A DNA stretch of 39,564 nt from a virus (IMGVR_UViG_3300032212_000058:1-39564); one strand, 5' to 3'; counted from the stretch's first letter, positions 120 to 17,483 are shown. Made by a program: numbers and translations. Notes: a model not told the origin generated them from the letters alone.

Positions 120-228
120 TGAGACCCACCGTGATAACTAGATAGATATTACTGAGATAAGTGGGATGAAAACAAATAAAACGGGATGTTGTGGGATGGT
201 CAGAATAAAAGAGAGTTGCAGAGGATAA
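120..228 (+). repeat. Left end (attL) with putative transposase-binding GATAA motifs
   Basis: TGAG-N9-GATAA (GATAA at 133-137), with further GATAA at 156-160 and 224-228. Mirrors the right end. Confidence 0.75.
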
Positions 229-246
229 AAGCCAAAAAAGCCAAAA

Positions 247-603
247 TTATGTCGGGTCGCTGGTGAACATGTCGGGCTGACGGCGAGCCAAGTCTGATGA
301 GCGAACCGCTTTGATTATCTGATAGGCCCACTGAATAGAGACATTATATTCTGCTGACAATTGTTCTAGGTGTTCAGTAGTCCCATTCCAGCGATTATAG
401 AATTCAAGGTCACGCTCGGTCAGGTCGATGCCCTGGCCTTTCGGGAAGTAGATCAGCTGACCACCCCAGTCTTTGCGCATCATATCAACCAGGGCGCGGG
501 CCAACCGAGCGGCCGCTTCACGATCAAGACCGACCTGCTCAACCGCCAGCGCAGTAGCCTTGTCAGTCAGATCGCGAAGAAGTTCAGGACTGCGGTTTTT
601 CAT
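247..603 (-). CDS. mor: Mor/C-family transcription activator
   Basis: WGGQLIYFPKG motif plus C-terminal HTH (LSAEYNVSIQWAYQII). ATG at 603 overlaps the gemA stop. Confidence 0.88.
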   Translation of the reverse strand: MKNRSPELLRDLTDKATALAVEQVGLDREAAARLARALVDMMRKDWGGQLIYFPKGQGIDLTERDLEFYNRWNGTTEHLEQLSAEYNVSIQWAYQIIKAVRSSDLARRQPDMFTSDPT

Positions 604-1055
604 CGCCAAACCACTCCGCAACGCTTAGCCCATTGCTTGAGAGACTCAACCACTTTGATCGCGACCGGCTTGGGCAGGAATTTCGGATCTTCCCAGCCAG
701 CTTGTTGAGGGTGGAAACGTCGAGTATTTGAGCGCAGCCAGGTGCGTAACGCAGTCGGATCAGACGACTTCACAACGCCAGCATCGACCATAGCAGTCCA
801 TATCCTTGGTATCAACGCAACCAGGTCTTCTGATGCCATCTGAGGCGATTTAGCCTTATTCTTTCTAGGTTTAGGCTTCCAGCCTTTTGAGATAAAATGA
901 GCCAACACACGGCCACGTCCTGCTGCTGACAGGTCTTTCGAACTCCCAGAGCCAACCTTTCCTACTTCACGGATCACCTGGCGATAGGTATCCTCGTCCA
1001 GACCAAGGTCTTTACATGCAATGTGGATTTTAGCGAGTTCTGTTTGCCGAGTCAT
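600..1055 (-). CDS. gemA: GemA / Mu gp16 (DUF1018) family protein
   Basis: LAKIHIA..LGLDEDTYR...G..SSKDL N-terminus and VVESLKQW C-terminus; adjacent to mor. Confidence 0.88.
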   Translation of the reverse strand: MTRQTELAKIHIACKDLGLDEDTYRQVIREVGKVGSGSSKDLSAAGRGRVLAHFISKGWKPKPRKNKAKSPQMASEDLVALIPRIWTAMVDAGVVKSSDPTALRTWLRSNTRRFHPQQAGWEDPKFLPKPVAIKVVESLKQWAKRCGVVWR

Positions 1056-2026
1056 AAAGCCCCCTCCACCAAACTCTCAAGTGGACTTTTCACGCTTGCA
1101 GCACCATTTGCAGCGACATGAGTATAAATTTGTGTAGTCGATATATTGGCATGACCAAGTAGTTTTTGGATTGTCCTGATATCAATGCCACTTTCTAATA
1201 GATGAGTGGCGAATGAATGACGGAGGATATGAGCGCCAACACGCTTAGTGATATTTGAAGTTCTGGCGGCTGTTTTGAGGGCTTTGCTGACTGCAGTTTC
1301 GTGAAGATGGTGTCGGCGCATAACTCCAGTGCGTGGGCACGCGCCAATAGTGGTTGACTGAAATAAAAACTGCCACCCTGGTTCTTTTGCGGCATTCGGA
1401 AATTTACGCTCAATTGCATTTGGTAGATATACCTCACCAAATCCATTATCAATGTCATGCTGATGTGTAGTCAGAGCAATATCGCGCTGCAACCGCATCT
1501 TACTCTCTAGTGATTCAGGCAACATCACTGCGCGATCTTTATCACCCTTTCCATGCCTAATAGTAATGATGTGTCGATCAAAATCGACATCCTGAATACG
1601 CAACGACAGAGCTTCGTTCAAACGCAGGCCTGAACCATATAATAGAGATGCTATTAGCTGTGTCATTCCAGACATTTTCTTCAAAAGTTCTGTGACTTCG
1701 TGCTGTGATAGAACTGTGGGCAACCGTTTTGGGGCAGTTGCAGGTCTGAATTGACCTATATCACCAACATCGATATTGAGTACTTGGCGATAAAAGAATA
1801 CCAAGGCATTCAAAGCCTGGTGCTGTGTAGACTTTGATACATGACGATCAACGGCTAGATGAGAAAGAAAGTCGCGCAACTTATCTGAATGACTTCCTTT
1901 GTCGTGACCCACACACCAACGACCATACCGACTAATCCAGTGCGTATAGGATTTTTCTGTCTTATATGACAGATGCCTGAATCGAGCAACATGCCTTGCT
2001 CGTAAAATCGCATCTTCGAGTCTCAT
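1052..2026 (-). CDS. intI: Integron integrase (tyrosine recombinase with IntI-specific insertion)
   Basis: N-terminal RFRHLSYKTEKSYTHWI and STQHQALNALVFFY. Catalytic motifs GSGLRLNE, GKGDKDR, HILRHSFATH, LLGH, TTQIYTH. Integron-specific patch GFGEVYLPNAIERKFPNAAKEPGWQFLF...RRHH. Confidence 0.95.
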   Translation of the reverse strand: MRLEDAILRARHVARFRHLSYKTEKSYTHWISRYGRWCVGHDKGSHSDKLRDFLSHLAVDRHVSKSTQHQALNALVFFYRQVLNIDVGDIGQFRPATAPKRLPTVLSQHEVTELLKKMSGMTQLIASLLYGSGLRLNEALSLRIQDVDFDRHIITIRHGKGDKDRAVMLPESLESKMRLQRDIALTTHQHDIDNGFGEVYLPNAIERKFPNAAKEPGWQFLFQSTTIGACPRTGVMRRHHLHETAVSKALKTAARTSNITKRVGAHILRHSFATHLLESGIDIRTIQKLLGHANISTTQIYTHVAANGAASVKSPLESLVEGAL

Positions 2027-2062
2027 CTATAGTAGCCTCGTTCCGATTAATATCTGTTAGGC
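2027..2062 (+). other. Putative compact attI site (crossover G|TT at 2056/2057, core GTTAGGC)
   Basis: A GTTRRRY core lies 30 bp from the intI start, at the canonical position, and is the exact complement of the GCCTAAC of the following attC. Also contains the intI RBS (GAGG on - strand). Confidence 0.65.
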
Positions 2063-2251
2063 ACCAATACGGACGCCCTGTTTTTTCAACTCTTCGATTT
2101 TCGCGTCACGCTCTTCCTTTGTATCAAAGAACAAAGGGCCGTTATTATCTCCGGCATTCATCCATTCACCTTCGAATTTAACTTTGATCCCGAAAACCTC
2201 TTTCATTTGTTTGGTATTAAACCAGGTTGATGGCTTTATGAATTTACTCAT
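2057..2251 (-). CDS. Cassette-encoded hypothetical protein (64 aa, MSKFIKPSTWF...)
   Basis: ATG at 2251 preceded by a GGAG RBS; the TAA stop lies within the core site. Confidence 0.75.
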   Translation of the reverse strand: MSKFIKPSTWFNTKQMKEVFGIKVKFEGEWMNAGDNNGPLFFDTKEERDAKIEELKKQGVRIGA

Positions 2252-2351
2252 AATCGTGGCTCCGTTCGTGCCTAACAAAATTTTTCAATCCGACTCATTC
2301 CGCGCCGGGCGTTCTTTTCCTGCACCTGAGTGGCGCGGCTTAAAAATGACG
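2057..2351 (+). mobile_element. Integron gene cassette (295 bp) with inverted ORF
   Basis: Bounded by G|TTAGGC and the attC G|TTAGCC. The circular form would have perfectly complementary GCCTAAC/GTTAGGC R boxes. Confidence 0.8.
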
Positions 2352-2357
2352 TTAGCC
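2270..2357 (+). other. attC recombination site (88 bp)
   Basis: R'' GCCTAAC (2270-2276) and R' GTTAGCC (2351-2357). L'' TTTTT[C]AATCCG pairs with L' CGGCTTAAAAA (one mismatch), with extrahelical C at 2286. TTCAAnCCGAC...GCGCGGCTTAA resembles classical attC arms. Confidence 0.85.
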
Positions 2358-2714
2358 ACAAAACTTCGGACCAAACCACTTCACAGAAATATACAAAGCA
2401 CTACGCTTCCATCGTGATACTCCCAGCACACCCATCGCTTCGTAGAATATTTTGTGGACTTCAACGCTTGATCTATCTTTGACCACACAAAGATAATCGT
2501 GCACCACCGCGGCTTTGCCGTATTTTCCCCACGGTGGTAACAACAACCAAAACGCTCTTGGGACGCTGGCAAAATCTGTTCTAAACCCAACAGGAACCGC
2601 GACCACATCATTGCTCGGATAGTCCCCGACGTGATAATGAAACGTTTGCATCAACCGCCATTCACGGCCATTGTTCAGTGGAGTAAGAATTAATTCGTCT
2701 GTGAATGTACTCAT
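2352..2714 (-). CDS. DUF1353-family phage protein
   Basis: VPVGFRTDFASVP...YGKAAVVHDYL...F.EAM..LGV motif. Confidence 0.8.
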   Translation of the reverse strand: MSTFTDELILTPLNNGREWRLMQTFHYHVGDYPSNDVVAVPVGFRTDFASVPRAFWLLLPPWGKYGKAAVVHDYLCVVKDRSSVEVHKIFYEAMGVLGVSRWKRSALYISVKWFGPKFCG

Positions 2715-2716
2715 AA

Positions 2717-2944
2717 TTACTTTCCATCTCTTTTATAAACTGTTATCAAGCACTTGTTTTTGACCACAGCAGTGAACCTGTTTTGGATGGTATAGACACC
2801 ATCGCCAAGTTCTTCTATCGCAGTGGAAATCCGTTCTGACAGCATTTCCTGTTTAATCATCTCAACGTCCAGGCCTCGACAACGTTCAAGGTAACGAACC
2901 AGCGCATGATCTGTGATTTTTAGAGATGTCTTAGTATCAGACAT
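2717..2944 (-). CDS. Hypothetical phage protein (ITDHALVRYLER motif)
   Basis: Tightly packed ORF in the early operon. Confidence 0.7.
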   Translation of the reverse strand: MSDTKTSLKITDHALVRYLERCRGLDVEMIKQEMLSERISTAIEELGDGVYTIQNRFTAVVKNKCLITVYKRDGK

Positions 2945-2972
2945 CAATCTTCACCCAGATCGGATCTGGTTC

Positions 2973-3668
2973 TCATGACAGTAGCTGCTCCAGTTTGTTA
3001 GTTGATTGCGACATATTGCCAGCCATAGACTTAACCAAAGCCACTTGGCGCTGGATCTGATCCTGAACTGATTTAGGCAGCAAGCGAGGGCCAAACTGCT
3101 GCTGTAGCGCAGCTATCTGGGCCGCATACTGTTCAGGATCATCCAGGATCTCCTGCAGCGATTTTGTCACTGCCGCCATCTTCGCTTCTGGGCTTAATAT
3201 CAAGTCTTCAACGGGCGTTTCTTTTACACGTTTAACACTGATATTTTTTCGAATCTCGCTATTGCCATCCTGTAGATCCAGCGCAAGCTGTTGCACTGCA
3301 TCCACCAGGCTGCATTTGCTTAGGCGAGCAGCTTTCTGGAGAGAGAAAAGCCCCCGAGAAACCAGTTCTTGATAAACTTCTTTTATTTCTGATTCATCAG
3401 CAATAATCCAATATCCACGGCTGCTACTGCTCATCACTGGAATGTCGTACACAGCGATCAAAACATTGATCAGGTCGCGCATCTTACGACTCAGCGTAGG
3501 AACGTCATCAATGATCTTTCCCTCACTATCACGGCGCAGCGCTTCACCAGACCATTGCTCATAGAGATCCCACATGTGAATGGCTTTGTGTTTACCTGGG
3601 TGCTTGCGTAAAATATCCAGCAAGCGCCTCAGATCCTTATTTAGTAATTCCTCATTATGTTTTTCCAT
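2973..3668 (-). CDS. Hypothetical protein, probable N-terminal winged HTH
   Basis: RKMRDLINVL...IPVMSSSSRGYWI resembles a wHTH wing; GGAG RBS upstream of MEKH. Confidence 0.65.
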   Translation of the reverse strand: MEKHNEELLNKDLRRLLDILRKHPGKHKAIHMWDLYEQWSGEALRRDSEGKIIDDVPTLSRKMRDLINVLIAVYDIPVMSSSSRGYWIIADESEIKEVYQELVSRGLFSLQKAARLSKCSLVDAVQQLALDLQDGNSEIRKNISVKRVKETPVEDLILSPEAKMAAVTKSLQEILDDPEQYAAQIAALQQQFGPRLLPKSVQDQIQRQVALVKSMAGNMSQSTNKLEQLLS

Positions 3669-4191
3669 TATCGCCTCCGGGTCTGAAACCAATTTCTTTC
3701 ATATGCCGATCAAATAACTCCTGACCGGATGGTTCATCTGGCGATGGCTTTGGCTGGGTCTTTTGTCCAGTCCGTAATTGTTGTTCTCGTTTCTGTTCGG
3801 CTTTTCCCTGATTTTTACTCGCGATTCCCGCGATGATCTCCAACAAATAACCATGCCCCTTCAATGGCAGAAGCAAGGTGCTTCGATTATTGTTGACCTG
3901 ATCCAGCGCCTCACGCCAATATTCGATTGGCGCTGGCCAGGTAACCCCTTTACGTGTGATCTCAGCAGTGCTGATCATCTCACTCAGCTCTTCCAGGATA
4001 GATGCCAGCTTATCCATGCTGATAGCTCGTTTACCTGGCGTAAACAGTCCCAAATAACCGATGATCCGATCGGCCAACGATGGCGCAATTTGGAGTGCTG
4101 ATAAAAGCGCCTGCCGCGCTCTGGCGTCATTCAACGCCAGAGGCAGCGGGAATTTGGCACCGCAATCAGGGCATACGCCAGGCAGGCTCAT
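3655..4191 (-). CDS. Conserved Mu-like phage early protein with N-terminal CxxC
   Basis: CPDCGA, YLGLFTP and LPLKGHGYLLEI motifs typical of transposable-phage early genes. Confidence 0.75.
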   Translation of the reverse strand: MSLPGVCPDCGAKFPLPLALNDARARQALLSALQIAPSLADRIIGYLGLFTPGKRAISMDKLASILEELSEMISTAEITRKGVTWPAPIEYWREALDQVNNNRSTLLLPLKGHGYLLEIIAGIASKNQGKAEQKREQQLRTGQKTQPKPSPDEPSGQELFDRHMKEIGFRPGGDNGKT

Positions 4192-4385
4192 TTAAAGACA
4201 ATCCGTTTGATTGTTGTTGACTCTTCATACCAGTGACGTGGCAAAACCCTTTCTGGCCGTTTATTGTTGGTGCCAGACGACATATCAAGGTCATCAGCAG
4301 TATTCTCAAGGGTGTGAGCCATTAGCTCGCCAACGGTCAGCAGGCGATTCAGGTGGTGTCGATCTATGTAAACCTTGTTAGCCAT
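4188..4385 (-). CDS. Hypothetical protein
   Basis: AAGGAG RBS; ATGA coupling to the next gene. Confidence 0.7.
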   Translation of the reverse strand: MANKVYIDRHHLNRLLTVGELMAHTLENTADDLDMSSGTNNKRPERVLPRHWYEESTTIKRIVFK

Positions 4386-4394
4386 AATGTCTCC

Positions 4395-4682
4395 TTATGA
4401 CGCCATCAAGGCGGCAGTATCAGCACCCCATTTAACATCGCAGCCTTCGAAATGGGTTGCCCTAACCTCGACACGCTTGCCACCAACACTGGATGAATAA
4501 TTCAAACCACTACCAATGCGATTGAGAGAATCATGTGGTTGCACAATAATGGTCGGCGATCGTCCACAAACAACAACCGCCAATACAGTCACACCCATCG
4601 CAGCTAAGCGTTCAGTTGCCTGATCTGCCGTGCGCATGCGATCCAAAACAATCTTGTTTTGAGTTGAATGATTTTGCATCAC
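4395..4682 (-). CDS. Hypothetical phage protein
   Basis: Overlaps the ATPase stop and ends ...FEGCDVKWG. Confidence 0.7.
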   Translation of the reverse strand: MMQNHSTQNKIVLDRMRTADQATERLAAMGVTVLAVVVCGRSPTIIVQPHDSLNRIGSGLNYSSSVGGKRVEVRATHFEGCDVKWGADTAALMAS

Positions 4683-5950
4683 ACACTCTCCAATATTTCT
4701 GCACTGACTTTAGGCGCACCGAACGATGCCGCCATGTTCATAGCCTTTGTCACCGTGATATTGACGACCAATGGATACAGCATGCTGATAGGTTGGCTGT
4801 GGCCACGTTTTTGCACCATCAAACGACGACGAATAGCATCAAAGGCATCCGGCTCAAAAATATCGTTCAGATGTTTGCTCATACGCTTAAGCTTTAATGT
4901 TAAATAGGCTTCCAGGTTGCCATTAAGAGGCTCAAGCTCAGCCACTTCGCAACGACGAATCACCTCACGCGCCTCCCAGTTCTGTCGCTCATCTAGTGAT
5001 GATTTTAATTCAGGCTGTCCAATAAGAATGATTGATAACAACTTGCGGAAGCCGTCCTCCAGCTCCCAAAAACGCTTTAGATATTTCAGCGTTTGCACAG
5101 ACAAATCATGCGCCTCTTCAATCATCAAAACATGAGCCGCCCCATCACGGGATGCATTGGTCAACAGGCGCAGAATCTGACGAGACTTGGCCTCCTGTGA
5201 GCGCTTGGGGGACTCTTTTGATATGTCACAAATGATTGCATCGCATATCGCGCCCGCCGTCAGTCGTCCCTTGTCGATGATTTGTGGTTGGATGATGACA
5301 ATGTCGGCATTTTCTTTTTGTACGCGATCGATCAGGTCACGACGCAACGTGGTCTTGCCCGCGCCTGACTCACCAATCACCGCCAGAAAGCCACCATGCT
5401 TGGCAGTCTGATACATGGCTTCTCTAATGTAACGTTGATCAGAATCCAAAAACACATCGTCAGCATTTTGAACGTCATCAGTGAATGGGTCACGAAACAA
5501 ACCAAAGTGTTTTTTGGCGGCAGGTGTTAGCATTTCAGTCTCCGGTATAGTAGTTTCTCGTACAGGTTCAGGGGTGGATGGATTGGTATGACCGGCGCGT
5601 TCGTAATTTTTCATTACTCCGTCTTCCAGCTCATTCCATAGATTGCTTAATTCAAATTTTGTAAGGCCTCTTTTTTTTAAAAACGCCTCAGTTTGTTTTT
5701 TGATTGTCGCTGGCTTGGTGCTGCGTGGCCACGTACCGTAATTCAACAACAGAGAGGCGGCAGGTTCACTCAGGCCGTTGCCCTTTCCGCGGCCTCCTTC
5801 TTGAACAATGGCTGATGCCCATTCGGATTGGGTAATGCTGTTATCTACAAGCACCATCTTGAGACGGATAGGCATATAACGGGCTTCCTTATTTTTATTG
5901 ATGGCAATTTGTGGCACTCTTTTTTCTGACATGATCATGGCGGTGGACAT
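4679..5950 (-). CDS. Transposition AAA+ ATPase (MuB-equivalent, ExeA-like)
   Basis: Walker A GESGAGKT and Walker B VLMIEEAH, LIGQPEL motif; directly downstream of the transposase. Confidence 0.92.
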   Translation of the reverse strand: MSTAMIMSEKRVPQIAINKNKEARYMPIRLKMVLVDNSITQSEWASAIVQEGGRGKGNGLSEPAASLLLNYGTWPRSTKPATIKKQTEAFLKKRGLTKFELSNLWNELEDGVMKNYERAGHTNPSTPEPVRETTIPETEMLTPAAKKHFGLFRDPFTDDVQNADDVFLDSDQRYIREAMYQTAKHGGFLAVIGESGAGKTTLRRDLIDRVQKENADIVIIQPQIIDKGRLTAGAICDAIICDISKESPKRSQEAKSRQILRLLTNASRDGAAHVLMIEEAHDLSVQTLKYLKRFWELEDGFRKLLSIILIGQPELKSSLDERQNWEAREVIRRCEVAELEPLNGNLEAYLTLKLKRMSKHLNDIFEPDAFDAIRRRLMVQKRGHSQPISMLYPLVVNITVTKAMNMAASFGAPKVSAEILESV

Positions 5951-5963
5951 AAATTTTCTCCTG

Positions 5964-7733
5964 TTATTTCACTACGCTTAATCCAATAGATTTAGATCCT
6001 ATGGTTGTGGGTTGAGGGCTGGTGATCTGCATCACCAACGTGTTGAACGCTTCATTGGGCACACCGTCTGGGTACAACTTCTGAACCAGGGCGTAATAAT
6101 TAATTCCTTCGGGGGGGTGGCCTAATTCAACCACCAGTCGCTTGCATGCCTCAGTGATAGTCATAGGTTTCACTTCAACAGCGGCATGATCCGGCACATC
6201 CATTTCGGTGCCTTTGCGTTGCATATAAACAGTGCTGGTTTCATCTTTCATGTAGCTGATAGGGTCCACTTCACCATTGAAGGCTGGGCGTTTTTCATTG
6301 CGCGCTTTATCAACTTCCAATTGCGTCTCAGCACCATAGGCATCCTTCGCCATCTGCTTGCGGTTTTGGTCGGCATCGGTGTCGGGTGTAGTCTTATAAC
6401 TTTCACCGTACACCGGCGCATCTAACAGAAATCCCGCCACGTCTCGGCCCAGTGGCTCGCATTCGTAGTGGCGCTCGGTGCCATCCGCGTCATGCATAAC
6501 TACATAGATGCTCGGCGCTTTATAGGGATTGACACAGACATCCACGTATTCACCGACGCGAATATCGGGCACATGGGCCACGCTGTATTGCGCTGGGTCA
6601 AAACCTTTAACCGTGAATTGCACCACCAGGCTGCCACGCACCTGGCGCGACTCAGGCCGCGTGCGCAATAGCAGCTCGCATAATTCCCTTGGTGGACAGA
6701 TGCGCAGCTGATCCGCACGCACCGATTGCCACAGGCCATAACGGGTATGGCCGTGGCGTGAATGGTTGAACGTGCCGTTGAAATGGCGCATCCATATATG
6801 CGCCTGCTCGTTGAGCTGTTCGACAGACTGAATGTTCATCATGAACAGCCGTCCCTCGAATTTGCACTCCACAATATTGTGGCCGTTTTCCACCTGGCCC
6901 TTGCCGCGCGGATTGCCGGGCGTATGGGCAATGTGCTTGCAATCCAGGCGGTCAAGCAGATTTTTTATTAATGCAGACTGGTTGGCGCTGCCCGCATCCC
7001 AAACCATGATGAACGGCACCCCGTGCAATGGGTCTTGCTCATGGCTGCGCTGATGGAAGGCATCCATCAAAAAACTAAACAGAATCTCCTGCGTTTCACC
7101 CGAGCCCATGTAGTAATGCACATAGAGCGCACCGGTATAGTGATCAGTGATCAGATAGCGCAACACTCGCTGCTTGCTGATCTTGGCAACGTTCTCAGGC
7201 TTGTTCTTATAAAACCGCTTCTCATCCATCACCCCCAGGCCGCCTTTATCTAAATAGAATAGAACGCACACCGACACATCGAACTGCCAGACGTGATTGG
7301 GGTGCAGGCTGCGCATCTCCGTGTGAGGTGATGGTTTAGTAATCTGGTCGGGATGTAACCCACGCTGACGCATAATGCGCAGTGCGGTGCTGGGCGAAAC
7401 AGTAGTACTGATCATGTTATTGGCCCGGGCAATTTGCATTGCATCATCCACGCCCAACAGACGCTTGCCGTTCTGCCGGTACGATTCAACCATCAATGTT
7501 GCGATGGTCCTGGCATCCTTATCACTCAAACGGCTGTCGCCTTTGTCGGCGCGAATCTTTTTACCGGAGCAATACCCGGCATTGAGTAACTGCCGGTAAA
7601 CACCCTGCCTGGTCGTACTCAAAAACGTGGCTGCGCCATCGATCAACACGCCTTTTTCGCCATGCCCGGCCGCCTCCAGCCGGGCGACCAGATCGCGCAG
7701 GTAATCGAGCGTTCCTATTTCGGCAGCATGCAT
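5964..7733 (-). CDS. DDE transposase (MuA-equivalent, integrase-core type)
   Basis: HPNHVWQFDVS, VWDAGSAN and PRGKGQVE give the D-D-E triad; paired with the ATPase. Confidence 0.92.
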   Translation of the reverse strand: MHAAEIGTLDYLRDLVARLEAAGHGEKGVLIDGAATFLSTTRQGVYRQLLNAGYCSGKKIRADKGDSRLSDKDARTIATLMVESYRQNGKRLLGVDDAMQIARANNMISTTVSPSTALRIMRQRGLHPDQITKPSPHTEMRSLHPNHVWQFDVSVCVLFYLDKGGLGVMDEKRFYKNKPENVAKISKQRVLRYLITDHYTGALYVHYYMGSGETQEILFSFLMDAFHQRSHEQDPLHGVPFIMVWDAGSANQSALIKNLLDRLDCKHIAHTPGNPRGKGQVENGHNIVECKFEGRLFMMNIQSVEQLNEQAHIWMRHFNGTFNHSRHGHTRYGLWQSVRADQLRICPPRELCELLLRTRPESRQVRGSLVVQFTVKGFDPAQYSVAHVPDIRVGEYVDVCVNPYKAPSIYVVMHDADGTERHYECEPLGRDVAGFLLDAPVYGESYKTTPDTDADQNRKQMAKDAYGAETQLEVDKARNEKRPAFNGEVDPISYMKDETSTVYMQRKGTEMDVPDHAAVEVKPMTITEACKRLVVELGHPPEGINYYALVQKLYPDGVPNEAFNTLVMQITSPQPTTIGSKSIGLSVVK

Positions 7734-7750
7734 GACAGGTCCATTCCTAT

Positions 7751-8683
7751 TTAGGCTTCTTCCCAATCCAATTCGTCCAGGCTGGTGCCTGTCGAGCTAG
7801 CAGCGGCCTCACGTGCCTCTTCCATCCAGGCATCGTCCTCGGGTTCATGGGCAACATCGCTCAGCGCATACTTGGCACGCAGATCATCCAGCGCCGTCAG
7901 CACTCGGTTGACCGACTGATTGCAGGCGTTTTTCAGATGAGTCGGGGCGTCTTGCCAGGTGAGGGTTTCGTGAATCACCACTTCCAACGCAAGCAGCTCG
8001 CCGATGCTATGCAGGGTTTTGCGCTCCAACCGTTGCGACAGATCACCGATGCGATCATCCAGCGGGGCGTTGTCGAGTTTGTGCAGGGCTTTATCTAGCT
8101 CGTTGATTTTATTGTCTTTATTTGCTAGTAACGCCTCGTGAGTCTCGCGTTCCTGACTCGCGTCATCACGGGCTGTGCGCAGGGCCTTCCGCAGTTCGTC
8201 GCGTGTCATGCGGTCGATTTCGTCCAGCGTAAGCCCAGCCAAGGTGCCTCCATTGGCCAGAGCTTCGAGATCATCATCCTCTTCGATCATGAGTTCGAGT
8301 AGTTTCGATTTGTCCAAATGCGACGCCAGCGTCGCATTTGACCCAGAAAACTTTACTGCCGCTTGCATCATTCGCTGAGCTGCTCTGGGATGAATGCCAA
8401 TCTGTTCTAATGCATGCGTGAACTCGCCATGCTGTTCGTGCTCCTTTAATACAATCAGCCGCTTACCTGCCTCCAACATAGCGTCGGCCGACTGCTGTAA
8501 ATAAAAGCGTGCCTCATTGATGAGGCGTTGCGGGTCATACGGCAGCCCATCACCATAGGTGGCGTCAATGGTGGCCAGGTGCTGGTGGTGTGCATCGGCG
8601 ACCTGGACATCTGCGGCGATAGTCTCGCCGTCGATGGTGGCGGTGGTGTCTTCTGCCGGTTTTTGTGTTGCTTTGCGAGCCAT
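7751..8683 (-). CDS. DUF3102-like phage protein
   Basis: EAGKRLIVLKEHEQHGEF...AQRMMQAA; upstream of the transposase as in B3-like phages. Confidence 0.75.
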   Translation of the reverse strand: MARKATQKPAEDTTATIDGETIAADVQVADAHHQHLATIDATYGDGLPYDPQRLINEARFYLQQSADAMLEAGKRLIVLKEHEQHGEFTHALEQIGIHPRAAQRMMQAAVKFSGSNATLASHLDKSKLLELMIEEDDDLEALANGGTLAGLTLDEIDRMTRDELRKALRTARDDASQERETHEALLANKDNKINELDKALHKLDNAPLDDRIGDLSQRLERKTLHSIGELLALEVVIHETLTWQDAPTHLKNACNQSVNRVLTALDDLRAKYALSDVAHEPEDDAWMEEAREAAASSTGTSLDELDWEEA

Positions 8684-8698
8684 GTGATTGATTCCTTA

Positions 8699-9007
8699 TT
8701 AATAGGGTGTGCGGTTGTAACGTTGGGTAACTTCGTCGACCTTGGCCTGGGCACGTTGCACGCCACTAAGCATGGCAACGCCGATTTGTGGCACCTTGGG
8801 CGACAGTCGCCAGCGGCCGCTGTCCTGTATCTGCTCAGCCAGCCCGGCCTCTTTCAGGTTGGCCAGATCGCGGGTGATGTTGCTGGGCATGGTGTTCAGC
8901 GCCTTGGCAATCTCACCCGGGGCCAGGCCGTTGACCTCATGCCCGGCCAGGCGCAGCAACACCTGCAAAACACGTTGCTGCGCACCATTGGTGTAACGTT
9001 CAGCCAT
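8699..9007 (-). CDS. IclR-type HTH DNA-binding protein
   Basis: GLAPGEIAKAL...ITRDLANLKEAGLAE...WRL; AGGAG RBS before ATG 9007. Confidence 0.8.
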   Translation of the reverse strand: MAERYTNGAQQRVLQVLLRLAGHEVNGLAPGEIAKALNTMPSNITRDLANLKEAGLAEQIQDSGRWRLSPKVPQIGVAMLSGVQRAQAKVDEVTQRYNRTPY

Positions 9008-9236
9008 TGATAAATGTCTCCTGATAGCGGTTGTCGAAATAGCCGTCCAACGGCAGTTCGTCATCGATTTGATCCAAACAAGGCAAGAGCCTGTCGGCCT
9101 CGGCCCAGCCCATTGCCCACCAGGCCGCTTCATCGCTGTTGACGGGATTGGGGTTGTCCAATAGCGTCTTGCCGTCCAGCCGCGCGTCGTAACCTTTCAG
9201 GTTTTGTTCGACATATGTTTCTTCTGTGGCGCTCAT
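9000..9236 (-). CDS. Small protein with Rmf-like motif
   Basis: GYDARLDG...NP...WWAMGWAEA. Confidence 0.6.
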   Translation of the reverse strand: MSATEETYVEQNLKGYDARLDGKTLLDNPNPVNSDEAAWWAMGWAEADRLLPCLDQIDDELPLDGYFDNRYQETFING

Positions 9237-9484
9237 GACTGAGTGCCTTTATTGGCATTAACAAAATCGGCCTCATGCTGAGCGCAGATATTCAGCAGAT
9301 CGCCCACGGTCATCCATTCCAGCGGCGTGCCAGTGTCGATGAGGCGGCACGCCAGACTGCGCTGGTATTGATAATTTCCTTTGGCGAAATCGCCAATTTT
9401 TTGCATAGCTTCTAATGTCGAAACGATGTTGTTGAGCGTGATAACAGGCACATCAAGCGGAATGCTGCTGGCGGTGGTGCTCAT
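9233..9484 (-). CDS. Hypothetical protein
   Basis: ATGA-coupled on both sides; AAGGAG RBS. Confidence 0.7.
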   Translation of the reverse strand: MSTTASSIPLDVPVITLNNIVSTLEAMQKIGDFAKGNYQYQRSLACRLIDTGTPLEWMTVGDLLNICAQHEADFVNANKGTQS

Positions 9485-9963
9485 AATTGATCTCCTTCTA
9501 GGTCTAGCTCAGGTTGGTTGGTTTTCTCCACGGTGCCGCGATGCCAGGCCAGAGACTCCATCACCCCAGTGATGGCAGCGATCGTCTCTTCCGCACTGGT
9601 GCGGCCTTCGTGAAACTTGATTAGGCTGGTGCTGGTTTCGTTCATCGCCAGCGACAGCTGAGTGATTTCCTGGTGAGTGGCCTTGCGGCCGGTGGGTACA
9701 TCTATCAGCAGTTTGTGACGGCGGTGAGCTTCATAATGAGTGATGAGGTCGATGCCGCAGGCGTTCTCAAAGGGATAGATAAGAATCCCTGGAATTCGCC
9801 CGGATTCAATCCACTTATAGATCATCCACTTGCTTTCGAGCCCCATCAGGTCGGCAATGTTGTCGATAGAGCGATTCAGGCGCTCTTTTGCATGACCTAC
9901 GCATAGCTCCATTGCGTGCCGGTAACTGATGGGGTGGACCTTCTTCCAACTTCTAGACGGCAT
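9481..9963 (-). CDS. Phage regulatory protein (HTH, CII-like)
   Basis: IADLMG...IYKWIESGRIP...FENACG; GGAGG RBS before ATG 9963. Confidence 0.7.
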   Translation of the reverse strand: MPSRSWKKVHPISYRHAMELCVGHAKERLNRSIDNIADLMGLESKWMIYKWIESGRIPGILIYPFENACGIDLITHYEAHRRHKLLIDVPTGRKATHQEITQLSLAMNETSTSLIKFHEGRTSAEETIAAITGVMESLAWHRGTVEKTNQPELDLEGDQL

Positions 9964-10085
9964 TGGAACGCCCCTCCGACTGCAAGCTGGTGACATTCCA
10001 AACAAAGCCGGATTTTGCTATTGTGCAAAGGTGTTGCAGAAACCTAAGCTGGAAGTACGTTAACAACCGCCAAAGGAGCCCTGTC

Positions 10086-10331
10086 ATGGCAATTGATCCG
10101 CACGATAAAGACCATAATGATCTCTGGTTGCAGCTAGCGCAGTTGCGCATTACGGTGACGACACAGGAGGCCATGATCAACATTCTCAGCGTGTTTCTGA
10201 TTGATCAGGGGCTTGATAAGCAACGTCTGATTGAATCGATTGAGACAATCGCGGGCAACGCTGACAGAGAGGGCAAGCCCCCTGTTGCCGAGCTAATGAG
10301 GGAATGGGTGACGTGTCTTGAAACTCTTTGA
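10086..10331 (+). CDS. Hypothetical protein antisense to the early operon
   Basis: AAAGGAG RBS before ATG 10086; 81 aa, helical-looking. Confidence 0.55.
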   Translation: MAIDPHDKDHNDLWLQLAQLRITVTTQEAMINILSVFLIDQGLDKQRLIESIETIAGNADREGKPPVAELMREWVTCLETL

Positions 10332-10464
10332 GGGCTCGATAGATATCGGCTCTATCAACCGTCATTTGGCCACTAATATGCTTATAGGCTTTCTGCGCCG
10401 TCCAGTTGTTACGAGAGGCTAGCTCATAAAATAGATTCGTTACTGATTGGTTATTGTTGTTCAT
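10186..10464 (-). CDS. Hypothetical protein
   Basis: AAGGAG RBS right after the ner stop; its 3' half overlaps the opposite-strand ORF. Confidence 0.5.
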   Translation of the reverse strand: MNNNNQSVTNLFYELASRNNWTAQKAYKHISGQMTVDRADIYRALKEFQDTSPIPSLARQQGACPLCQRCPRLSQSIQSDVAYQAPDQSETR

Positions 10465-10476
10465 GCGGCGGTCTCC

Positions 10477-10692
10477 TTAGGCGGCGGTTTTTGACTGGCG
10501 GTACCATTTTGGCCAGATCCGCTCAAGCGGCAGGCCGGTAACCTGAGAGATATAACGCTCGATCCGTTTGGAACGACCGTTACCAAAAATGACGAGGTGC
10601 ACAGCAGTACTGGAGACATTGAAACGTTTAGCGATCGCCGTTTGCGAGACGGACTTTTTGGCTAATGTAGCTTTTATGTCTATTGGGTCCAT
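10477..10692 (-). CDS. ner: Ner/Nlp-like (Cro-equivalent) regulator
   Basis: DIKATLAKK..SQTAIA...IS..TG...ERIWPKWY; first early gene, divergent from the repressor. Confidence 0.8.
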   Translation of the reverse strand: MDPIDIKATLAKKSVSQTAIAKRFNVSSTAVHLVIFGNGRSKRIERYISQVTGLPLERIWPKWYRQSKTAA

Positions 10693-10791
10693 GATTGGCC
10701 TTTTTTTAGGTTTGCTGTGCTTAAAAAACAAAATTGAATTGTTAATTTAAAATTGATTGTGGTGCATGAATATGCACCTGTCAAGGATTCT
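10693..10791. promoter_or_regulatory. Divergent immunity switch region with operator-like inverted repeat GGTGCAT-gaat-ATGCACC (10761-10778)
   Basis: AT-rich spacer between ner and the repressor, containing a 7-bp-arm palindrome. Confidence 0.65.
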
Positions 10792-11196
10792 ATGGAAAAA
10801 AGTGCGCAGATAAACACCTTTGGTCCTAGGCTTCGGGAGGAGCGCGATCGTTTGCGTCTAAATCAGACTGACTTTGGAGCTGCCGGCGGTATTAAAAAAC
10901 GAGCCCAAATCAATTATGAAAAAGGTGAGGGAGCGCCTACTCCAGACTATTGGGTAGGGATCACCAAAATAGGTGCTGATATCCAATACATTTTGACGGG
11001 GGTCAGATCGTGCAATCTAAATCATGTCGCTGAAGAGGCGGCTGGATATCAATCCCGCGGGGGTGGGAGCGTATCGCAGGAAGAGAAAGGTATCATTCAG
11101 ATGTACCGGGAACTCAGGCCTGCGGACCGCACCCATGCAAGGGCGGTTATTGATGCGCTTGCATGCAAAAACTTGAAAAAGGATGAGACGGGTTAG
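10792..11196 (+). CDS. XRE-family phage repressor (cI-like)
   Basis: RLREERDRLRLNQTDFG...AQINYEKG...GADIQYILTG. Confidence 0.88.
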   Translation: MEKSAQINTFGPRLREERDRLRLNQTDFGAAGGIKKRAQINYEKGEGAPTPDYWVGITKIGADIQYILTGVRSCNLNHVAEEAAGYQSRGGGSVSQEEKGIIQMYRELRPADRTHARAVIDALACKNLKKDETG

Positions 11197-11289
11197 CCTG
11201 TACCAAATGCGCCAGCGCTGGCACATTAGGATGAGCTTAAAGCGGCCAACGTTGGCCGTTATGGATCAACAAATAATAACGGGGGTTAA

Positions 11290-11625
11290 ATGAAAAAGAT
11301 CGCAATGTTGTTGCTAGCGTCTATGTTGACGGGCTGCGTAATGTTAAACGGCGTACCAACCTACGTCCCAATTCATGACGACTTCATTACATTGGTGGAG
11401 GCTGATGTTGATATCGGTGGGCAAACACTTTTTAAAGGGCAAAAGCTAGACCATTACAATATTGACGGTGCGGATGCATATTGTTCACGACTAGTGTCGT
11501 CAAATCTAAATTTATATCGTTGCTTTTTAGTCGATGGAGATCAGCTTACGACCGGCTTGCATCCCATGACGAGTGAGTGGCGACCGTTGTCACGTAATGT
11601 TCCGATCATAAAGCAGACAAACTAA
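11290..11625 (+). CDS. Lipoprotein (moron)
   Basis: Signal peptide with lipobox MKKIAMLLLASMLTG-C. Confidence 0.8.
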   Translation: MKKIAMLLLASMLTGCVMLNGVPTYVPIHDDFITLVEADVDIGGQTLFKGQKLDHYNIDGADAYCSRLVSSNLNLYRCFLVDGDQLTTGLHPMTSEWRPLSRNVPIIKQTN

Positions 11626-11642
11626 CCACAATTTCCGCCAAC

Positions 11643-11792
11643 ATGAGAATCGAGAATACATTTGTAGCATCAATTCTTTGTGGTTTCCGTGGCCATCACT
11701 GGCGCTTTGTCCGTATCAGTATTGAAGGGGATAAGGTTTTTAAATGTCGTCGGTGTGGACAAGATAAAGTGGCACCATTTTTCCAGCATTAA
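11643..11792 (+). CDS. 49-aa putative zinc-binding peptide (DUF1660-like)
   Basis: Hand-translated: MRIENTFVASILCGFRGHHWRFVRISIEGDKVFKCRRCGQDKVAPFFQH. C-x4-H plus CxxC; weak RBS. Confidence 0.5.
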   Translation: MRIENTFVASILCGFRGHHWRFVRISIEGDKVFKCRRCGQDKVAPFFQH

Positions 11793-11840
11793 TTATATTG
11801 TAATTTTTTTCATTGAGGTATCCGTTATTTAGGGGGTTGT

Positions 11841-12791
11841 GTGGGCACTACTATTAAGAGAACTATAAATCTAAAAGCTGTTTATTTTAATTCCGGTAAG
11901 AGAAAAAATTTTAAGGCTCCAATAATCCAAGATGTATTGGAAAAATTCTGGACAAATTCATCGTCTGTCGCAGATACACTCCAACCTAGAGGTGGTGACG
12001 ATAACGTACGGCGGTGCTTTATTAATAAAGGGAAATCGTATGAGCAAGGATTTGGTTTTCAGTTTTGCTCATATTTGCCTGGTGAGTTTCCACCGTCATC
12101 AAGCTTGGATTTAAGTAAAAAAGCTGTGGATGTTGATGCTATTCCAATAGTGGATGAAGAAGGAAATCATCGGCAGATAATAAGCGTTGTGCATGTACTT
12201 GCTTTTGGTCACGCTTTAATTGTTGAAAGTGTCAAAGGTAGTGGAGGTATAGATGTATTGGAGCGATATCTTACCCGCATTGTCAAGCAGATATTAGATA
12301 CCCCAAATCATCCGGCTGTTCATTTGGTTGACCCTGCTCCTAAAGGGCTTCACCAATTAATTTCTCACGGAGGGGGTGTTGTGGGTGTTGATCTATTGCT
12401 GGCAGAGTCTAATGTCATAAAAGGCAGTAAGTATGCAAGCTCTTTGACTACTCTAAGAGATCAATTACCTGGAACAGATAAACTTTTTGTAAAATGGCAA
12501 AGCAGTACAATTTTAAATGTACAAGAGGTAGAGCAAGCATTTTCCGAAGCAGAACAGAATGATGCTCTTGATCGGGTCTCTGTATATTTAAGAAATGGTG
12601 ATACGGTTAGTTTGTCCAAGCATAGGATTAGGGCTCGTCCTGACGTTCAATCTGTCAATGGAAAAAACCCAGCCAGCAACGAGCTAATGAAAGAAATGCG
12701 GAATTTTATTATTGAATTGAAGTCACCCGATGAGGACGATGGCTTAACAATTTTGACGGAAGACGGTAGGCTAGCGAATGTCAATATATAG
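11841..12791 (+). CDS. Hypothetical soluble protein, AT-rich moron (candidate defence component)
   Basis: 316-aa ORF in an AT-rich segment, paired with a membrane protein. Confidence 0.8.
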   Translation: MGTTIKRTINLKAVYFNSGKRKNFKAPIIQDVLEKFWTNSSSVADTLQPRGGDDNVRRCFINKGKSYEQGFGFQFCSYLPGEFPPSSSLDLSKKAVDVDAIPIVDEEGNHRQIISVVHVLAFGHALIVESVKGSGGIDVLERYLTRIVKQILDTPNHPAVHLVDPAPKGLHQLISHGGGVVGVDLLLAESNVIKGSKYASSLTTLRDQLPGTDKLFVKWQSSTILNVQEVEQAFSEAEQNDALDRVSVYLRNGDTVSLSKHRIRARPDVQSVNGKNPASNELMKEMRNFIIELKSPDEDDGLTILTEDGRLANVNI

Positions 12792-12807
12792 GCCCATTAT
12801 TTAATTT

Positions 12808-13407
12808 ATGGCTATCAGAGATTATTTCCCGGATGAGTGGCTAGCCGCATTTGAAGCCTCTTCTAATCTTAAGAAAACGGCCAAAAAAACACCTCATGCA
12901 GTTTTTAAGCTGTTTATTGGGGTGTTGTTTCCTTTTCTTGGAGGATCAATAGCCGCTTTCTTTTTACAACTAAGAGTGAGTGAGAATTTTGTTGTTGGTG
13001 CGATTACAACGATAGGAATATTGCTTGGATTTTCTATGAGTTTAATGCTTTTCACTGGTAGAGGTTCAGGGGCTGAGTCATTGAACTATGATGAAGCAAA
13101 AGTTTATAGGGATAAAATAATATATTTATTATGGTCTCAAAGCCTAACCTTGATTAGTTATACAATGACACTTGCGCTTGGAATTATTTTGCTTTTGATT
13201 GGGGTTGATAAAGTTAGCCTCGCGGAAACAATAGCCCTATCAATGTTTATTGGTGCTTTAATCTTGTGTTTCGTTCGAACGGCAATGCTTCCATATCAAT
13301 TGATCGACATGCATACATTTAATCTTAAAATGCTTGTTGAAACTAAACAAAAACAACTAAAAAAAGAACTTGAGAAGCAAAAACGGGATCTGTCCCTTGA
13401 CGATTAG
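12808..13407 (+). CDS. Four-TM membrane protein, AT-rich moron
   Basis: Four hydrophobic stretches and a charged C-terminal tail. Confidence 0.8.
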   Translation: MAIRDYFPDEWLAAFEASSNLKKTAKKTPHAVFKLFIGVLFPFLGGSIAAFFLQLRVSENFVVGAITTIGILLGFSMSLMLFTGRGSGAESLNYDEAKVYRDKIIYLLWSQSLTLISYTMTLALGIILLLIGVDKVSLAETIALSMFIGALILCFVRTAMLPYQLIDMHTFNLKMLVETKQKQLKKELEKQKRDLSLDD

Positions 13408-13409
13408 CT

Positions 13410-13455
13410 TTTTTAAATCACTTTAATATTATTTGGCCTCTCTGCCCCCTAGTCT
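13410..13455 (+). promoter_or_regulatory. Putative activator-dependent late promoter 1 (lysis/packaging)
   Basis: TTTTTAAATCACTTTAA, then 23 nt, then -10-like TAGTCT; same architecture as 24614. Confidence 0.7.
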
Positions 13456-13462
13456 GGAGGGC

Positions 13463-13849
13463 ATGACTTCAACACTTCAGCTCAGTACTCATTTCCGGCG
13501 ACATGAATTTGCATGCCCTTGTGGTTGTGGTTTCAACACCATCGACGCCGAACTACTTTATGTTCTGGAATCTATTCGGGATCATTTCCAAACCCCTGTA
13601 ATCATCAACAGTGGTGCGCGGTGCATGCGGCATAATGTAAGCGTTGGCGGTGCGGCGCTTTCAAAACATACGCTTGGCCAGGCAGCAGACATTAGAGTCG
13701 GTGGCGCTGAACCCGACAAGGTGTTCGCGTGGCTGGATAAAACCTTCCCTGACTGTTACGGCATTGGCCGTTATGACACCTGGACGCATATTGATGTGCG
13801 CCCAAACAGATCACGTTGGGATAAACGAGAGGTGCGTCATGAGCTTTGA
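13463..13849 (+). CDS. Endolysin, peptidase M15 family
   Basis: EFACPCGCG, INSGARC..HN..VGGA..SKH..GQAADI, THIDVR; GGAGG RBS. Confidence 0.9.
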   Translation: MTSTLQLSTHFRRHEFACPCGCGFNTIDAELLYVLESIRDHFQTPVIINSGARCMRHNVSVGGAALSKHTLGQAADIRVGGAEPDKVFAWLDKTFPDCYGIGRYDTWTHIDVRPNRSRWDKREVRHEL

Positions 13850-14369
13850 CTGGAAAAAACTGGTACGTAAAGTGGCGCCCACGATCGGTGCGGCACTCGG
13901 CACTCCTGCCTCTGGTATGGCGATCAAGTTTCTTGCAGATAAATTCCTGGGCAATCCAGATGCAACTGAGATTGAGTTGGCTGGCGCCATTCAAAACTCA
14001 ACACCCGAACAGATACTGGCACTGAAACAGCTGGATCAGGACTTTGCCATCAAGATGAAAGAGTTGGATATCGATGTCTTCCGGCTTGAAACCGCCGATC
14101 GCCAGAATGCTCGCGAATTATTCAAGGTCAACATCTGGCCACAGGTCATTCTCTCAGGCCTGTTCGTGGTGGGTTATTTCTCCATTATGGGGTTGCTGGT
14201 GTGGATGCATGACACTCATTTTGATGATCGTGTGTTCGGCATTCTCAACACAGTCATCGGTGTGCTTACCGCTGCTATCCCAATGATTCTGCAATTTTGG
14301 TTTGGCTCCAGCACGGGATCAAAAGAGAAAGACCAGATAAAGGCACAGGAGTCTGCAAAGCGTGATTGA
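13839..14369 (+). CDS. Putative holin / lysis membrane protein
   Basis: VAPTIGAALG..., DRQNAR, two TM helices, FWFGSS motif; follows the endolysin. Confidence 0.7.
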   Translation: MSFDWKKLVRKVAPTIGAALGTPASGMAIKFLADKFLGNPDATEIELAGAIQNSTPEQILALKQLDQDFAIKMKELDIDVFRLETADRQNARELFKVNIWPQVILSGLFVVGYFSIMGLLVWMHDTHFDDRVFGILNTVIGVLTAAIPMILQFWFGSSTGSKEKDQIKAQESAKRD

Positions 14370-14718
14370 TGGAATTGATTGGAAGGTTGTGTCTGCGCTG
14401 GTCGGTGTTGTCATGGCCTGGAGTGTGGTGCTGTTTTGGGCGGTGAAGTGGTTGCTGGACGGGCATACAACGCACCTTGATGAAAAGTTTACCGCGCTGC
14501 AAAACGCAGCCAACAAAGAAGCCGAGCAGCTGCAACGGGTTGAAAAAGACTTGCTCAAGATGCAAGCAGAGCTACCTGAAAAATACGTGCGGCGTGAAGA
14601 CTGGATTCGATTCTCAGCAGTAATTGATGCCAAGCAGGACACCCTGAGCGAAAAGATTAGCCGTGTAGACATGACATTACAGCGTGTCGATGAGCGAATG
14701 AGACTGGAGAGTAAATAA
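14362..14718 (+). CDS. Membrane-anchored coiled-coil protein (Mu gp25-like position)
   Basis: N-terminal TM helix and LPEKYVRRED motif. Confidence 0.7.
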   Translation: MIDGIDWKVVSALVGVVMAWSVVLFWAVKWLLDGHTTHLDEKFTALQNAANKEAEQLQRVEKDLLKMQAELPEKYVRREDWIRFSAVIDAKQDTLSEKISRVDMTLQRVDERMRLESK

Positions 14719-15026
14719 TGGATCACGAACGTCTGAATCATGCCCGTTCCAAAATGATCCGTTATCGGATTCTGCGCATCCTGGATGTCGGCCGTCCATT
14801 GCCTGTCGGTGAGGGGCTTATCCAGGAGGTACTGGTCGATGCAGATCTTGAGGCAACGCAAACCGATGTGCGCAAGGCGATGCAATATTTAGCTGACAAG
14901 CGCTTTGTTGAAATCAATAAGCCACGTGGCATGCCGTACTGGGAAGGCCGCTTGCTTCCTGCCGGTGTTGACTACATCGAAAACCCCGAGCACGACGAGC
15001 CCGGCATTGCACGGCCACGGGTATAA
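14718..15026 (+). CDS. Mu gp26-like winged-helix protein
   Basis: R..ILRIL, YLADK, G.D, PGIARP; precedes the small terminase. Confidence 0.75.
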   Translation: MDHERLNHARSKMIRYRILRILDVGRPLPVGEGLIQEVLVDADLEATQTDVRKAMQYLADKRFVEINKPRGMPYWEGRLLPAGVDYIENPEHDEPGIARPRV

Positions 15027-15028
15027 AT

Positions 15029-15577
15029 ATGCCGCCCCGTTCATTCGTTCTCGACCTGCCGGAAGACCTGCGCAAAGACCTCAATGGTCTGCTCGTGTCT
15101 AAAGGCTTTGCCGATTATTCAGGTCTCGAAGCCTGGCTCAATCAAGAGCTGCAGGTGCGCGGCCTTGAGATACGGGTCTCGCGTTCGGCTATCCACCGCC
15201 ACGGTCAACAGTTCGAAGAAAAACTCGAGACGATGCGTATGGCCACCGAGCAGGCGAAGGCCATCGCCGAGGGCGCGAGTGATGACGAAGGCGCGATGAA
15301 CGAAGCGCTGATCCGTTTGGTGCAGACCAAAATGTTTGAAGCGTTGATGGATGTTGGATCCAAGGACGATCTGAGCAAGATCGGCGTTGCGATCGCACGC
15401 CTAAGCCGGGCATCTGTCACGCAGAAAAAATGGGCTGAGGAAGTTAAAACCAAACTGGAGGCGAAGAAACAAGCGGCAGCAGCGAAGGTGGATGCCATCA
15501 GCAAAACGCGCGGCCTGACCGCCGACGTGGCCGCGCAAATTCGTGCCGAAATTCTGGGGATTAATGTCGATGGATAA
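15029..15577 (+). CDS. Terminase small subunit (DUF3486 / Mu gp27-like)
   Basis: MPPRS...LP..LR, SRSAIHRHG, IRAEILG. Confidence 0.85.
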   Translation: MPPRSFVLDLPEDLRKDLNGLLVSKGFADYSGLEAWLNQELQVRGLEIRVSRSAIHRHGQQFEEKLETMRMATEQAKAIAEGASDDEGAMNEALIRLVQTKMFEALMDVGSKDDLSKIGVAIARLSRASVTQKKWAEEVKTKLEAKKQAAAAKVDAISKTRGLTADVAAQIRAEILGINVDG

Positions 15578-17147: not shown

Positions 17148-17461
17148 ACGAGCTGTGGCGCCCACGCCGGTGTAATTGTCGAATATGGGCGCTCGTCATG
17201 TTGCTTAGATTCGGCGGACGGTTGGCAAAGCGGCAATCATTTGCGGGGCGGTGGAAACATGTTTTTTGGTCACCAGACGGTGAAACGCTCTACGAATATG
17301 CGCCACTTGAATATGATTTTGAACGACGTGTTCCGCCAATTTTATTTCGTGGTCACGTACGTGAGGTTGTGAGTGAGGTTATTGAGCAGACCGTGATTGT
17401 TAACGGGCAACAGATTGTTAATAGGATGAATTTATCTCAGCGATTAAAGCGGCAGTTGTGA
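17144..17461 (+). CDS. Hypothetical protein
   Basis: GTGA overlap with the terL stop. Confidence 0.55.
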   Translation: MNELWRPRRCNCRIWALVMLLRFGGRLAKRQSFAGRWKHVFWSPDGETLYEYAPLEYDFERRVPPILFRGHVREVVSEVIEQTVIVNGQQIVNRMNLSQRLKRQL

Positions 17462-17483
17462 ACAATTAAAGGGGTGTTATTAC

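Follow-up and report, generated by a model that had tools for sequence, protein, structure and literature searches.

Integrons are held to be bacterial devices with a fixed logic, in which promoterless genes are read from Pc and the newest gene is the most strongly expressed. What, then, would an integron do inside the early operon of a transposable phage? A phage lineage that used the same chemistry with flipped genes, read together with intI from an early promoter, would represent a second expression logic, and accessory early genes (methylases, anti-restriction genes) that could be swapped as units would supply a concrete mechanism for phage mosaicism. The question is raised by one whole virus record of 39,564 bp (IMGVR_UViG_3300032212_000058:1-39564; hereafter the window), in which a sequence-only reading had described a complete minimal integron built into the early operon of a transposable prophage. 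We found its parts in place: an integron integrase (IntI), an attI site and a cassette with its attC site.

The integron lies in the early operon of a B3-type prophage

120..39437, B3-type transposable prophage, 39,318 bp, with TG...CA ends and the 6-bp duplication TGATGC
247..606, minus strand, mor-family late-gene activator (PF08765, phrog_532)
600..1055, minus strand, gemA (PF06252)
2352..2714, minus strand, DUF1353 gene, upstream in the operon (PF07087)
4679..5950, minus strand, transposition ATPase B (phrog_296, E 2e-64)
5964..7766, minus strand, DDE transposase A (phrog_310, E 9e-95)
10756..10784, minus strand, predicted early promoter TTGACA-17-CACAAT (consensus match 10/12)

The prophage begins with TGAGACC at 120 and closes with GGCCTCA ending at 39437, and TGATGC stands on either side of it (114–119 and 39438–39443), bearing out the earlier claim that its ends are marked by a target-site duplication. 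These ends came from read data, a repeat search having returned none: a short contig from the source run passes directly from window 15–119 into the sequence starting at 39444 and thereby represents the empty host site, and a second contig of that run, 13.7 kb long, covers 90–4500 without a difference. Since that one run may be the source of the DNA, its contigs are not independent of the window. The empty-site contig has a depth of 104 and the prophage a depth of 14, depth here not being copy number.

The window carries the attributes of a B3-type phage, namely a DDE transposase with its ATPase, gemA, mor, TG...CA ends, a 6-bp duplication and a length of 39.3 kb (36–39 kb for the type). The duplication is the mark of phage B3 and B3-type phages in the accessible part of PMC8705779, and together with the transposase match it agrees with the earlier statement that the phage integrates through a DDE transposase. 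Terminase, portal, head and tail genes are also present, and a one-cassette, 1.3-kb integron in an apparently complete prophage with defined ends makes a small test system.

Behind the predicted promoter, 19 minus-strand ORFs follow one another from 10731 to 247, never more than 100 bp apart, and the integron lies inside this run. The intI stop and the gemA start share 4 nt (ATGA). At 44% GC, intI and the cassette fall below both the prophage (50%) and the transposase (53%). Because the module is thus lower in GC than the phage core (50–53%) and has its nearest relatives in non-Mu phages, it was probably added recently to this Mu-like genome. We found no close Mu-like relative with an empty site; the three relatives at 55% transposase identity were fragments without gemA.

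IntI is an integron integrase

1052..2026, minus strand, intI, integron integrase, 324 aa (TIGR02249, 387 bits; PDB 2a3v, E 4e-74)
2024..2062, plus strand, attI; motif GCC..AATATCTG|TT, conserved in 15 aligned loci that diverge after G|TT
2057..2351, plus strand, gene cassette, 295 bp; R'' complements the attI core at 4/4 variable positions
2057..2251, minus strand, cassette ORF, 64 aa, inverted, read from the sequence; same strand as intI and the early operon
2270..2357, plus strand, attC, 88 nt, canonical orientation (covariance model, 30 bits, E 4.5e-5)

In the profile search, IntI scored 387 bits against TIGR02249, for which the cut-off is 265, and the XerC and XerD models gave 161 and 159 bits, each under its own cut-off. 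IntI carries R135, K160, H266, R269, H292 and Y301, which we take to be the catalytic residues and which are invariant in 40 homologues. The closest solved structure is IntI4 (PDB 2a3v, E 4e-74), aligned over residues 7–318, and the alignment takes in a stretch that the Xer chains do not cover, the integron-specific insertion. The first reading had called this an intact IntI with that insertion, and had named assignment to XerC/D as the outcome that would tell against it; the profiles and the structure both side with IntI. The protein is 46% identical to IntI1 and distant from it in the tree, and so this is not a class 1 mobile integron.

attI, the cassette and attC have the usual geometry

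The attI core GTTAGGC occupies 2056–2062, beside intI and at the start of the array, where a GTTRRRY core belongs; its G lies 30 bases upstream of the intI ATG, as first read. The crossover would fall between 2056 and 2057, and the ribosome-binding site of intI, on the minus strand, is likely to lie inside attI as well. Two further attI elements were considered and set aside: a hairpin (GCC..GGC) conserved in several loci, which is absent from the subgroup of the window, and a DR1-like site 29–30 bp before the core (32 bp in attI1), which is a weak analogy to attI1 only.

The 295-bp cassette was likewise recovered as described, with R'' GCCTAAC (2270–2276) an exact complement of the attI core and R' GTTAGCC at 2351–2357. 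Between them lie L'' and L', with an extrahelical C at 2286, and the bottom strand, which is the minus strand and hence the sense of the early mRNA, folds into a hairpin at −14.5 kcal/mol with the R and L arms paired. The check by covariance model that had been proposed came out in favour of the site: it is the sole match with E < 1 in the 39.6-kb window, for a model trained on 44 attC sites from 15 other arrays with forward genes and only roughly calibrated. The R''-L'' spacer is 6 nt, against 5 in all 44 training sites; because the same spacer occurs in L010, L012, L019 and L262, four loci of the IntI clade described below, an assembly error is unlikely. Our attC heuristic misses the site when restricted to a 5-nt spacer, and was therefore widened and its result checked by the independent, host-trained model. 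No further attC was found in 2358–6000. A weak attC-like inverted repeat in a tail-fibre gene (36855–36984; CGCTAAC/GTTAGCG, E 1.9, heuristic score 17.85) is probably due to chance.

With the attC top strand on plus and intI on minus, the layout is not the inverted-integrase one. The intI, attI and attC elements keep their usual mutual geometry, that of the integron platform in the accessible part of PMC11551772, and the cassette gene alone is flipped, a direction that had gone unnoticed in the earlier note. Its ORF has a GGAG at 2263–2260, 8 nt ahead of the ATG and beside R'', and its stop TAA corresponds, on the plus strand, to the TTA just beyond the attI crossover. A consensus scan of 1052–2056 found no plus-strand promoter-like site that could serve as Pc for a gene that lies, in any case, on the opposite strand, and neither a cassette promoter nor a LexA-like box was found. 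The cassette protein had no homologue, retrieving only itself among 5.8 billion proteins; its atlas matches were all below 0.9 and none was usable. The DUF1353 gene next upstream has its stop TAA within the R' core of attC and has no attC of its own; the idea of a usual cassette gene found no support, none of eight relatives lying near an attC.

IntI belongs to a phage-associated clade

Searches of IMG/VR with single sequences gave one weak locus for IntI and none for GemA, whereas a search with an alignment of 40 homologues returned 553 confirmed stretches, of which the best 80 were kept. To these we added 80 genome and 80 metagenome loci, from scans covering 1/64 of each collection, a coverage at which chromosomal members of the clade could be missed, and the 7 best plus 20 more loci from one gammaproteobacterial order, in which 109 of 380 genomes had an IntI match. 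The FastTree tree held 248 sequences; 3 of the 21 same-order host IntI were left out for in-frame stops.

Window IntI falls in a 70-tip clade (FastTree support 0.976) made up of the window, 14 IMG/VR loci, the 6 genome loci that ranked best, and 49 proteins lacking genomic context; some of these proteins may duplicate genes of the clade loci. No ordinary host integron lies inside it, and all 18 same-order host IntI in the tree lie outside. The nearest bacterial group, weakly supported (0.73), is the sedentary chromosomal integrons of Gammaproteobacteria. The closest named proteins come, by their source labels, from gammaproteobacterial symbiont assemblies, which hints at the host group. The 20 other members with known surroundings are, without exception, phages or loci that resemble prophages, in most cases lambdoid and not Mu-like; by our tests, the window and L012 are the two Mu-like members among the 21.

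Phage early genes lie upstream of the integron in the clade loci. Downstream, a phage integrase or recombinase is found in L004, L005, L006, L008, L010, L011, L044 and L261–L265 and, on the opposite strand, in L007 and L266; a terminase in L013, L014 and L019; an endolysin and a terminase in L012; and other phage genes in L009 and L023. For L261, which has only 547 bases upstream, the prophage context rests on the downstream integrase. Recognisable genes in or just before the arrays belong to DNA methyltransferase, exonuclease and Lar-like families. By a crude test, CTG-N10-CAG (LexA-like) occurs upstream of intI in none of the 21 clade loci, compared with 8 of 21 same-order host loci; this, and its position inside prophage ends, set the window apart from sedentary chromosomal integrons. 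The intI genes of L261 and L262 differ with dN 0.039 and dS 0.59. Those of the window and L262 differ with pN 0.19 and pS 0.78, which points to purifying selection in the clade.

Viral integrons extend beyond this clade. The IntI of dozens of other viral contigs (within L015–L083, IMG/VR) belong to at least two further clades, and the cassettes there face either way; L061, a second Mu-like phage, has an IntI of another clade after gemA. Phage integrons thus seem to have arisen more than once. In L003 (Virus Rctr41k, KX853513), an IntI-like gene at 4680–5678, annotated xerD and 42% identical, is basal in the tree; the heuristic found no attC in its flanks.

Cassette genes of the clade are inverted

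We classified the direction of cassette genes with a symmetric classifier, applied identically to all groups. In the clade, 24 genes were inverted, 0 forward and 2 ambiguous (26 genes, 10 of 21 loci informative). In contrast, bacterial and metagenome arrays pooled gave 53 forward and 3 inverted of 71. This total comprises same-order hosts (6 forward, 0 inverted and 2 ambiguous of 8; 5/21 loci), other genomes (26 forward, 2 inverted and 6 other of 34; 9/46 loci) and metagenomes (21 forward, 1 inverted and 7 other of 29; 10/73 loci). Viral loci outside the clade were mixed, with 19 forward, 18 inverted and 21 ambiguous (27/66 loci), and some phage integrons may therefore carry host-type cassettes. 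An earlier count over 51 clade segments had found 47 inverted, 0 forward, 3 ambiguous and 1 without a gene; it used a longer reverse-strand stretch, and the symmetric count is therefore preferred for comparison with the controls.

The position of stop codons relative to attC followed the same division. Of 29 clade attC sites, 17 had a bottom-strand ORF of at least 50 aa that stopped in the R' core, versus 9 of 97 host sites, and a top-strand ORF had its stop in R'' at 4/29 and 33/97, respectively. Two separate pools of cassettes, one forward (hosts) and one inverted (phages), would also have a bearing on how cassettes are made, a question still open.

Related loci vary exactly at the attI junction

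Fifteen aligned loci share the attI motif GCC..AAT(A/C)(T/C)CTG|TT, with two variants, 30–69 bp upstream of intI. The suggestion that relatives be compared at this junction proved apt, in that they differ exactly after G|TT. The attI of the window is nearly identical in L004, L261, L262 and L269; in L261 and L262 the DNA differs after GTTA, and L262 has seven attC sites. In L265, intI is truncated at its N-terminus and there is no attI motif. In 37 of 51 model-defined segments (19 loci), R'' fits the preceding core at 4/4 positions; among first cassettes, 14 of 19 fit the attI core. Core matches and junction variation together form the footprint that IntI-mediated insertion would be expected to leave, the junction variation being indirect support for recombination.

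No whole cassette was common to different fetched loci, or to any of them and a host array, apart from duplicates of the same record; the partial matches span 106–266 bp. Around an attC, L012:7676-7767 (Mu-like) and L019:7749-7840 (non-Mu) share about 106 bp at 90% identity, and the right arm of this common attC resembles that of the window. L261 has a 12-bp perfect inverted repeat that starts at the GTT core and ends in a matching R''-like heptamer 28 bp further on. Neither the empty attI junction (TATCTG|TTAGCCAC) nor the 295-bp circle appeared as a joint in the source-run contigs, an outcome that cannot show absence because contigs drop rare forms.

The clade attI also occurs away from intI. 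IMG/VR was scanned twice for the motif, with 2 matches in one scan and 15 in the other; of the 15, 7 had an adjacent IntI (2 of them new) and 8 had none, including 2 inside long ORFs that are probably chance. L269 has an attI close to that of the window, three attC sites and inverted genes, and no IntI was found in its 44-kb record (91% complete); nor was there an IntI match in the five intI-less records tested (24–51% complete). L296 likewise has this attI motif and three attC sites without an adjacent intI, and its longest cassette ORFs are forward. In the L293 group (three identical loci), an ATG stands at the position of intI and opens MKL, as in L008 IntI, before unrelated sequence follows. 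One IMG/VR contig (L300 and L295/L008) contains two near-identical attI sites, each with an inverted array, one of them beside intI.

A probable phage-run exchange point and its alternatives

According to the accessible parts of bioRxiv 2022.09.11.507474 and PMC4792948, the partners that IntI recombines are attI and the folded bottom strand of attC, and it is this that fixes the orientation of a cassette relative to Pc. The window holds a complete integron at the end of the early operon of a transposable phage, and we consider it probable that the phage runs it as a point of exchange for small accessory genes of phages. An early transcript starting from 10784 would read through the transposase, the accessory genes, attC, the cassette gene, attI, intI, gemA and mor. 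The early promoter would then stand in for both Pc and Pint, with no SOS box, and cassette genes and IntI would be made only upon infection or induction. Recombination could take place during replication of the phage DNA, when single strands are on offer: IntI would join the folded bottom strand of an incoming attC circle to attI, placing each new cassette just before intI. Because the TTA would travel along, every cassette gene would keep its stop codon and the operon would stay readable. The main source of cassettes would be other phages and prophages of the same inverted design; ordinary promoterless host cassettes would be antisense here, and the usable pool is thus likely to be phage-derived.

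The sequence-only reading had instead cast the integron as a platform for sampling host integron cassettes, which replicative transposition would then disperse. Integrons are indeed frequent where the host probably belongs (one order had IntI matches in 109 of 380 genomes), the attC of the window is of ordinary bacterial type, and IntI1 recognises phage attC sites (PMC9892861), so cross-talk is chemically possible. The direction of the genes speaks against it: forward cassettes number 0/26 in the symmetric count and 0/51 among the clade segments, where the arrays of bacteria and metagenomes had 53 forward and 3 inverted, and intI/attI has no plus-strand promoter-like site from which such a cassette could be read. 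As for dispersal, 2 of 21 context-known clade members are Mu-like, and the same module sits mostly in lambdoid and other non-transposable temperate phages, so that transposition appears incidental and not the spreader. We regard capture from host chromosomal integrons with spread by transposition as quite unlikely.

We also judge it unlikely that the integron is a frozen relic, a piece of a bacterial integron picked up in one illegitimate recombination and dead in this phage. Its single cassette, non-canonical spacer and low-GC block would suit such a history, as would the lack of a circle in the source-run contigs, and the published phage integrons are captured fragments of this kind (PMC9892861). 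However, intI is intact and overlaps gemA by 4 nt, its phage-associated clade appears to be under purifying selection, and attI has been kept across unrelated phages with different cassettes behind it. An Xer-like or phage integrase with another job (dimer resolution, integration), flanked by sites that arose by chance, would explain why generic Phage_integrase families also match IntI, but is very hard to credit: TIGR02249 is above its cut-off while the Xer models are far below theirs, the phage already has a DDE transposase and a target duplication, and the attC model match comes with an exact core match.

Beyond the exchange point itself, and with slightly more doubt than belief, we suggest that temperate phages run an integron economy of their own, in which an IntI lineage and its attI move between lambdoid and transposable phages, trade a pool of inverted cassettes expressible from phage early operons alone, and serve in trans those phages that lost intI and retained attI. 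If true, variation in the early regions of phages, the semi-essential early region of Mu-like phages among them, would have a site-specific mechanism behind it.

Relation to known integrons

Integrons are not confined to chromosomes, plasmids and transposons: that typical distribution, on which the first reading relied, has to be widened to temperate phages, whose integrons are already published. A survey of 10,705 phage genomes by Qi et al. 2023 (PMC9892861) yielded 17 CALINs, 1 In0 and 3 complete integrons. The In0 and the complete integrons lie in Vibrio anguillarum phages (MK672802, MK672805), P1 (MH445380) and the Shewanella prophage M16-3 (MZ568829), the complete ones being fragments of host chromosomal or class 1 integrons. 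As in the window, intI with attI and attC cassettes (intI alone in MK672805) lies inside a temperate phage record. In contrast to the window, their IntI are host-like (39–46% identical to window IntI, the three placed in the tree lying outside the clade), none of the phages is described as transposable, and the main text has neither inverted cassette genes nor a phage-resident IntI clade. The layout in the window is thus a real integron, different from the captured host or class 1 fragments published in phages. The phage CALINs of the same survey resemble the clade in that their attC arrays, too, lie among accessory genes of phages and in some cases include DNA methyltransferases. They lack intI, and the clade attI that is likewise found without intI (L269, L296, L300) may link them with this clade.

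Sedentary chromosomal integrons (Vibrio IntI4/VchIntIA, PDB 2a3v; Shewanella, Marinobacter and Pseudoalteromonas, L002, L100, L112 and L125) share the enzyme family, the attC structure and the divergent intI/attC geometry. Their genes, however, are forward and read from Pc, and their attI lies mostly more than 100 bp from intI, whereas in the window attI is 30 bp from the start codon, the genes are inverted and the unit lies within a phage operon. The accessible part of PMC13323075, citing Neron 2022, knows two integron layouts, regular and inverted-integrase. In the latter, as here, intI and the cassette genes point one way, but it is intI that is flipped relative to attC; in the window, intI and attC keep the regular arrangement, the genes run counter to their attC and the array lies upstream of intI. 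With B3-type phages and their SEE region, the window shares a 39-kb genome, TG...CA ends, a 6-bp duplication and variable small early genes, and no integron is described in the accessible part of PMC8705779. Our literature search, in which subscription papers were thinly covered, did not turn up any account of an IntI clade resident in phages, of phage cassettes in inverted orientation or of a Mu-like phage carrying an integron, and the accessible part of PMC13366799 likewise reports none found.

Other genes of the prophage

Several genes elsewhere in the prophage have relatives of interest. The gene at 2717–2947 has a 40%-identical relative at L266:12393-12611 whose last codon is the TAA of an attC R' core in the array of L266, and a relative of 3655–4191 lies upstream of attI in L303; genes upstream of the attC of the window may once have passed through the cassette pool. 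A low-depth contig about 86% identical to 3257–3614 represents a related phage in the source run. At the right end of the prophage, 38531–39352 encodes a DNA methyltransferase; Mu has mom at the corresponding position.
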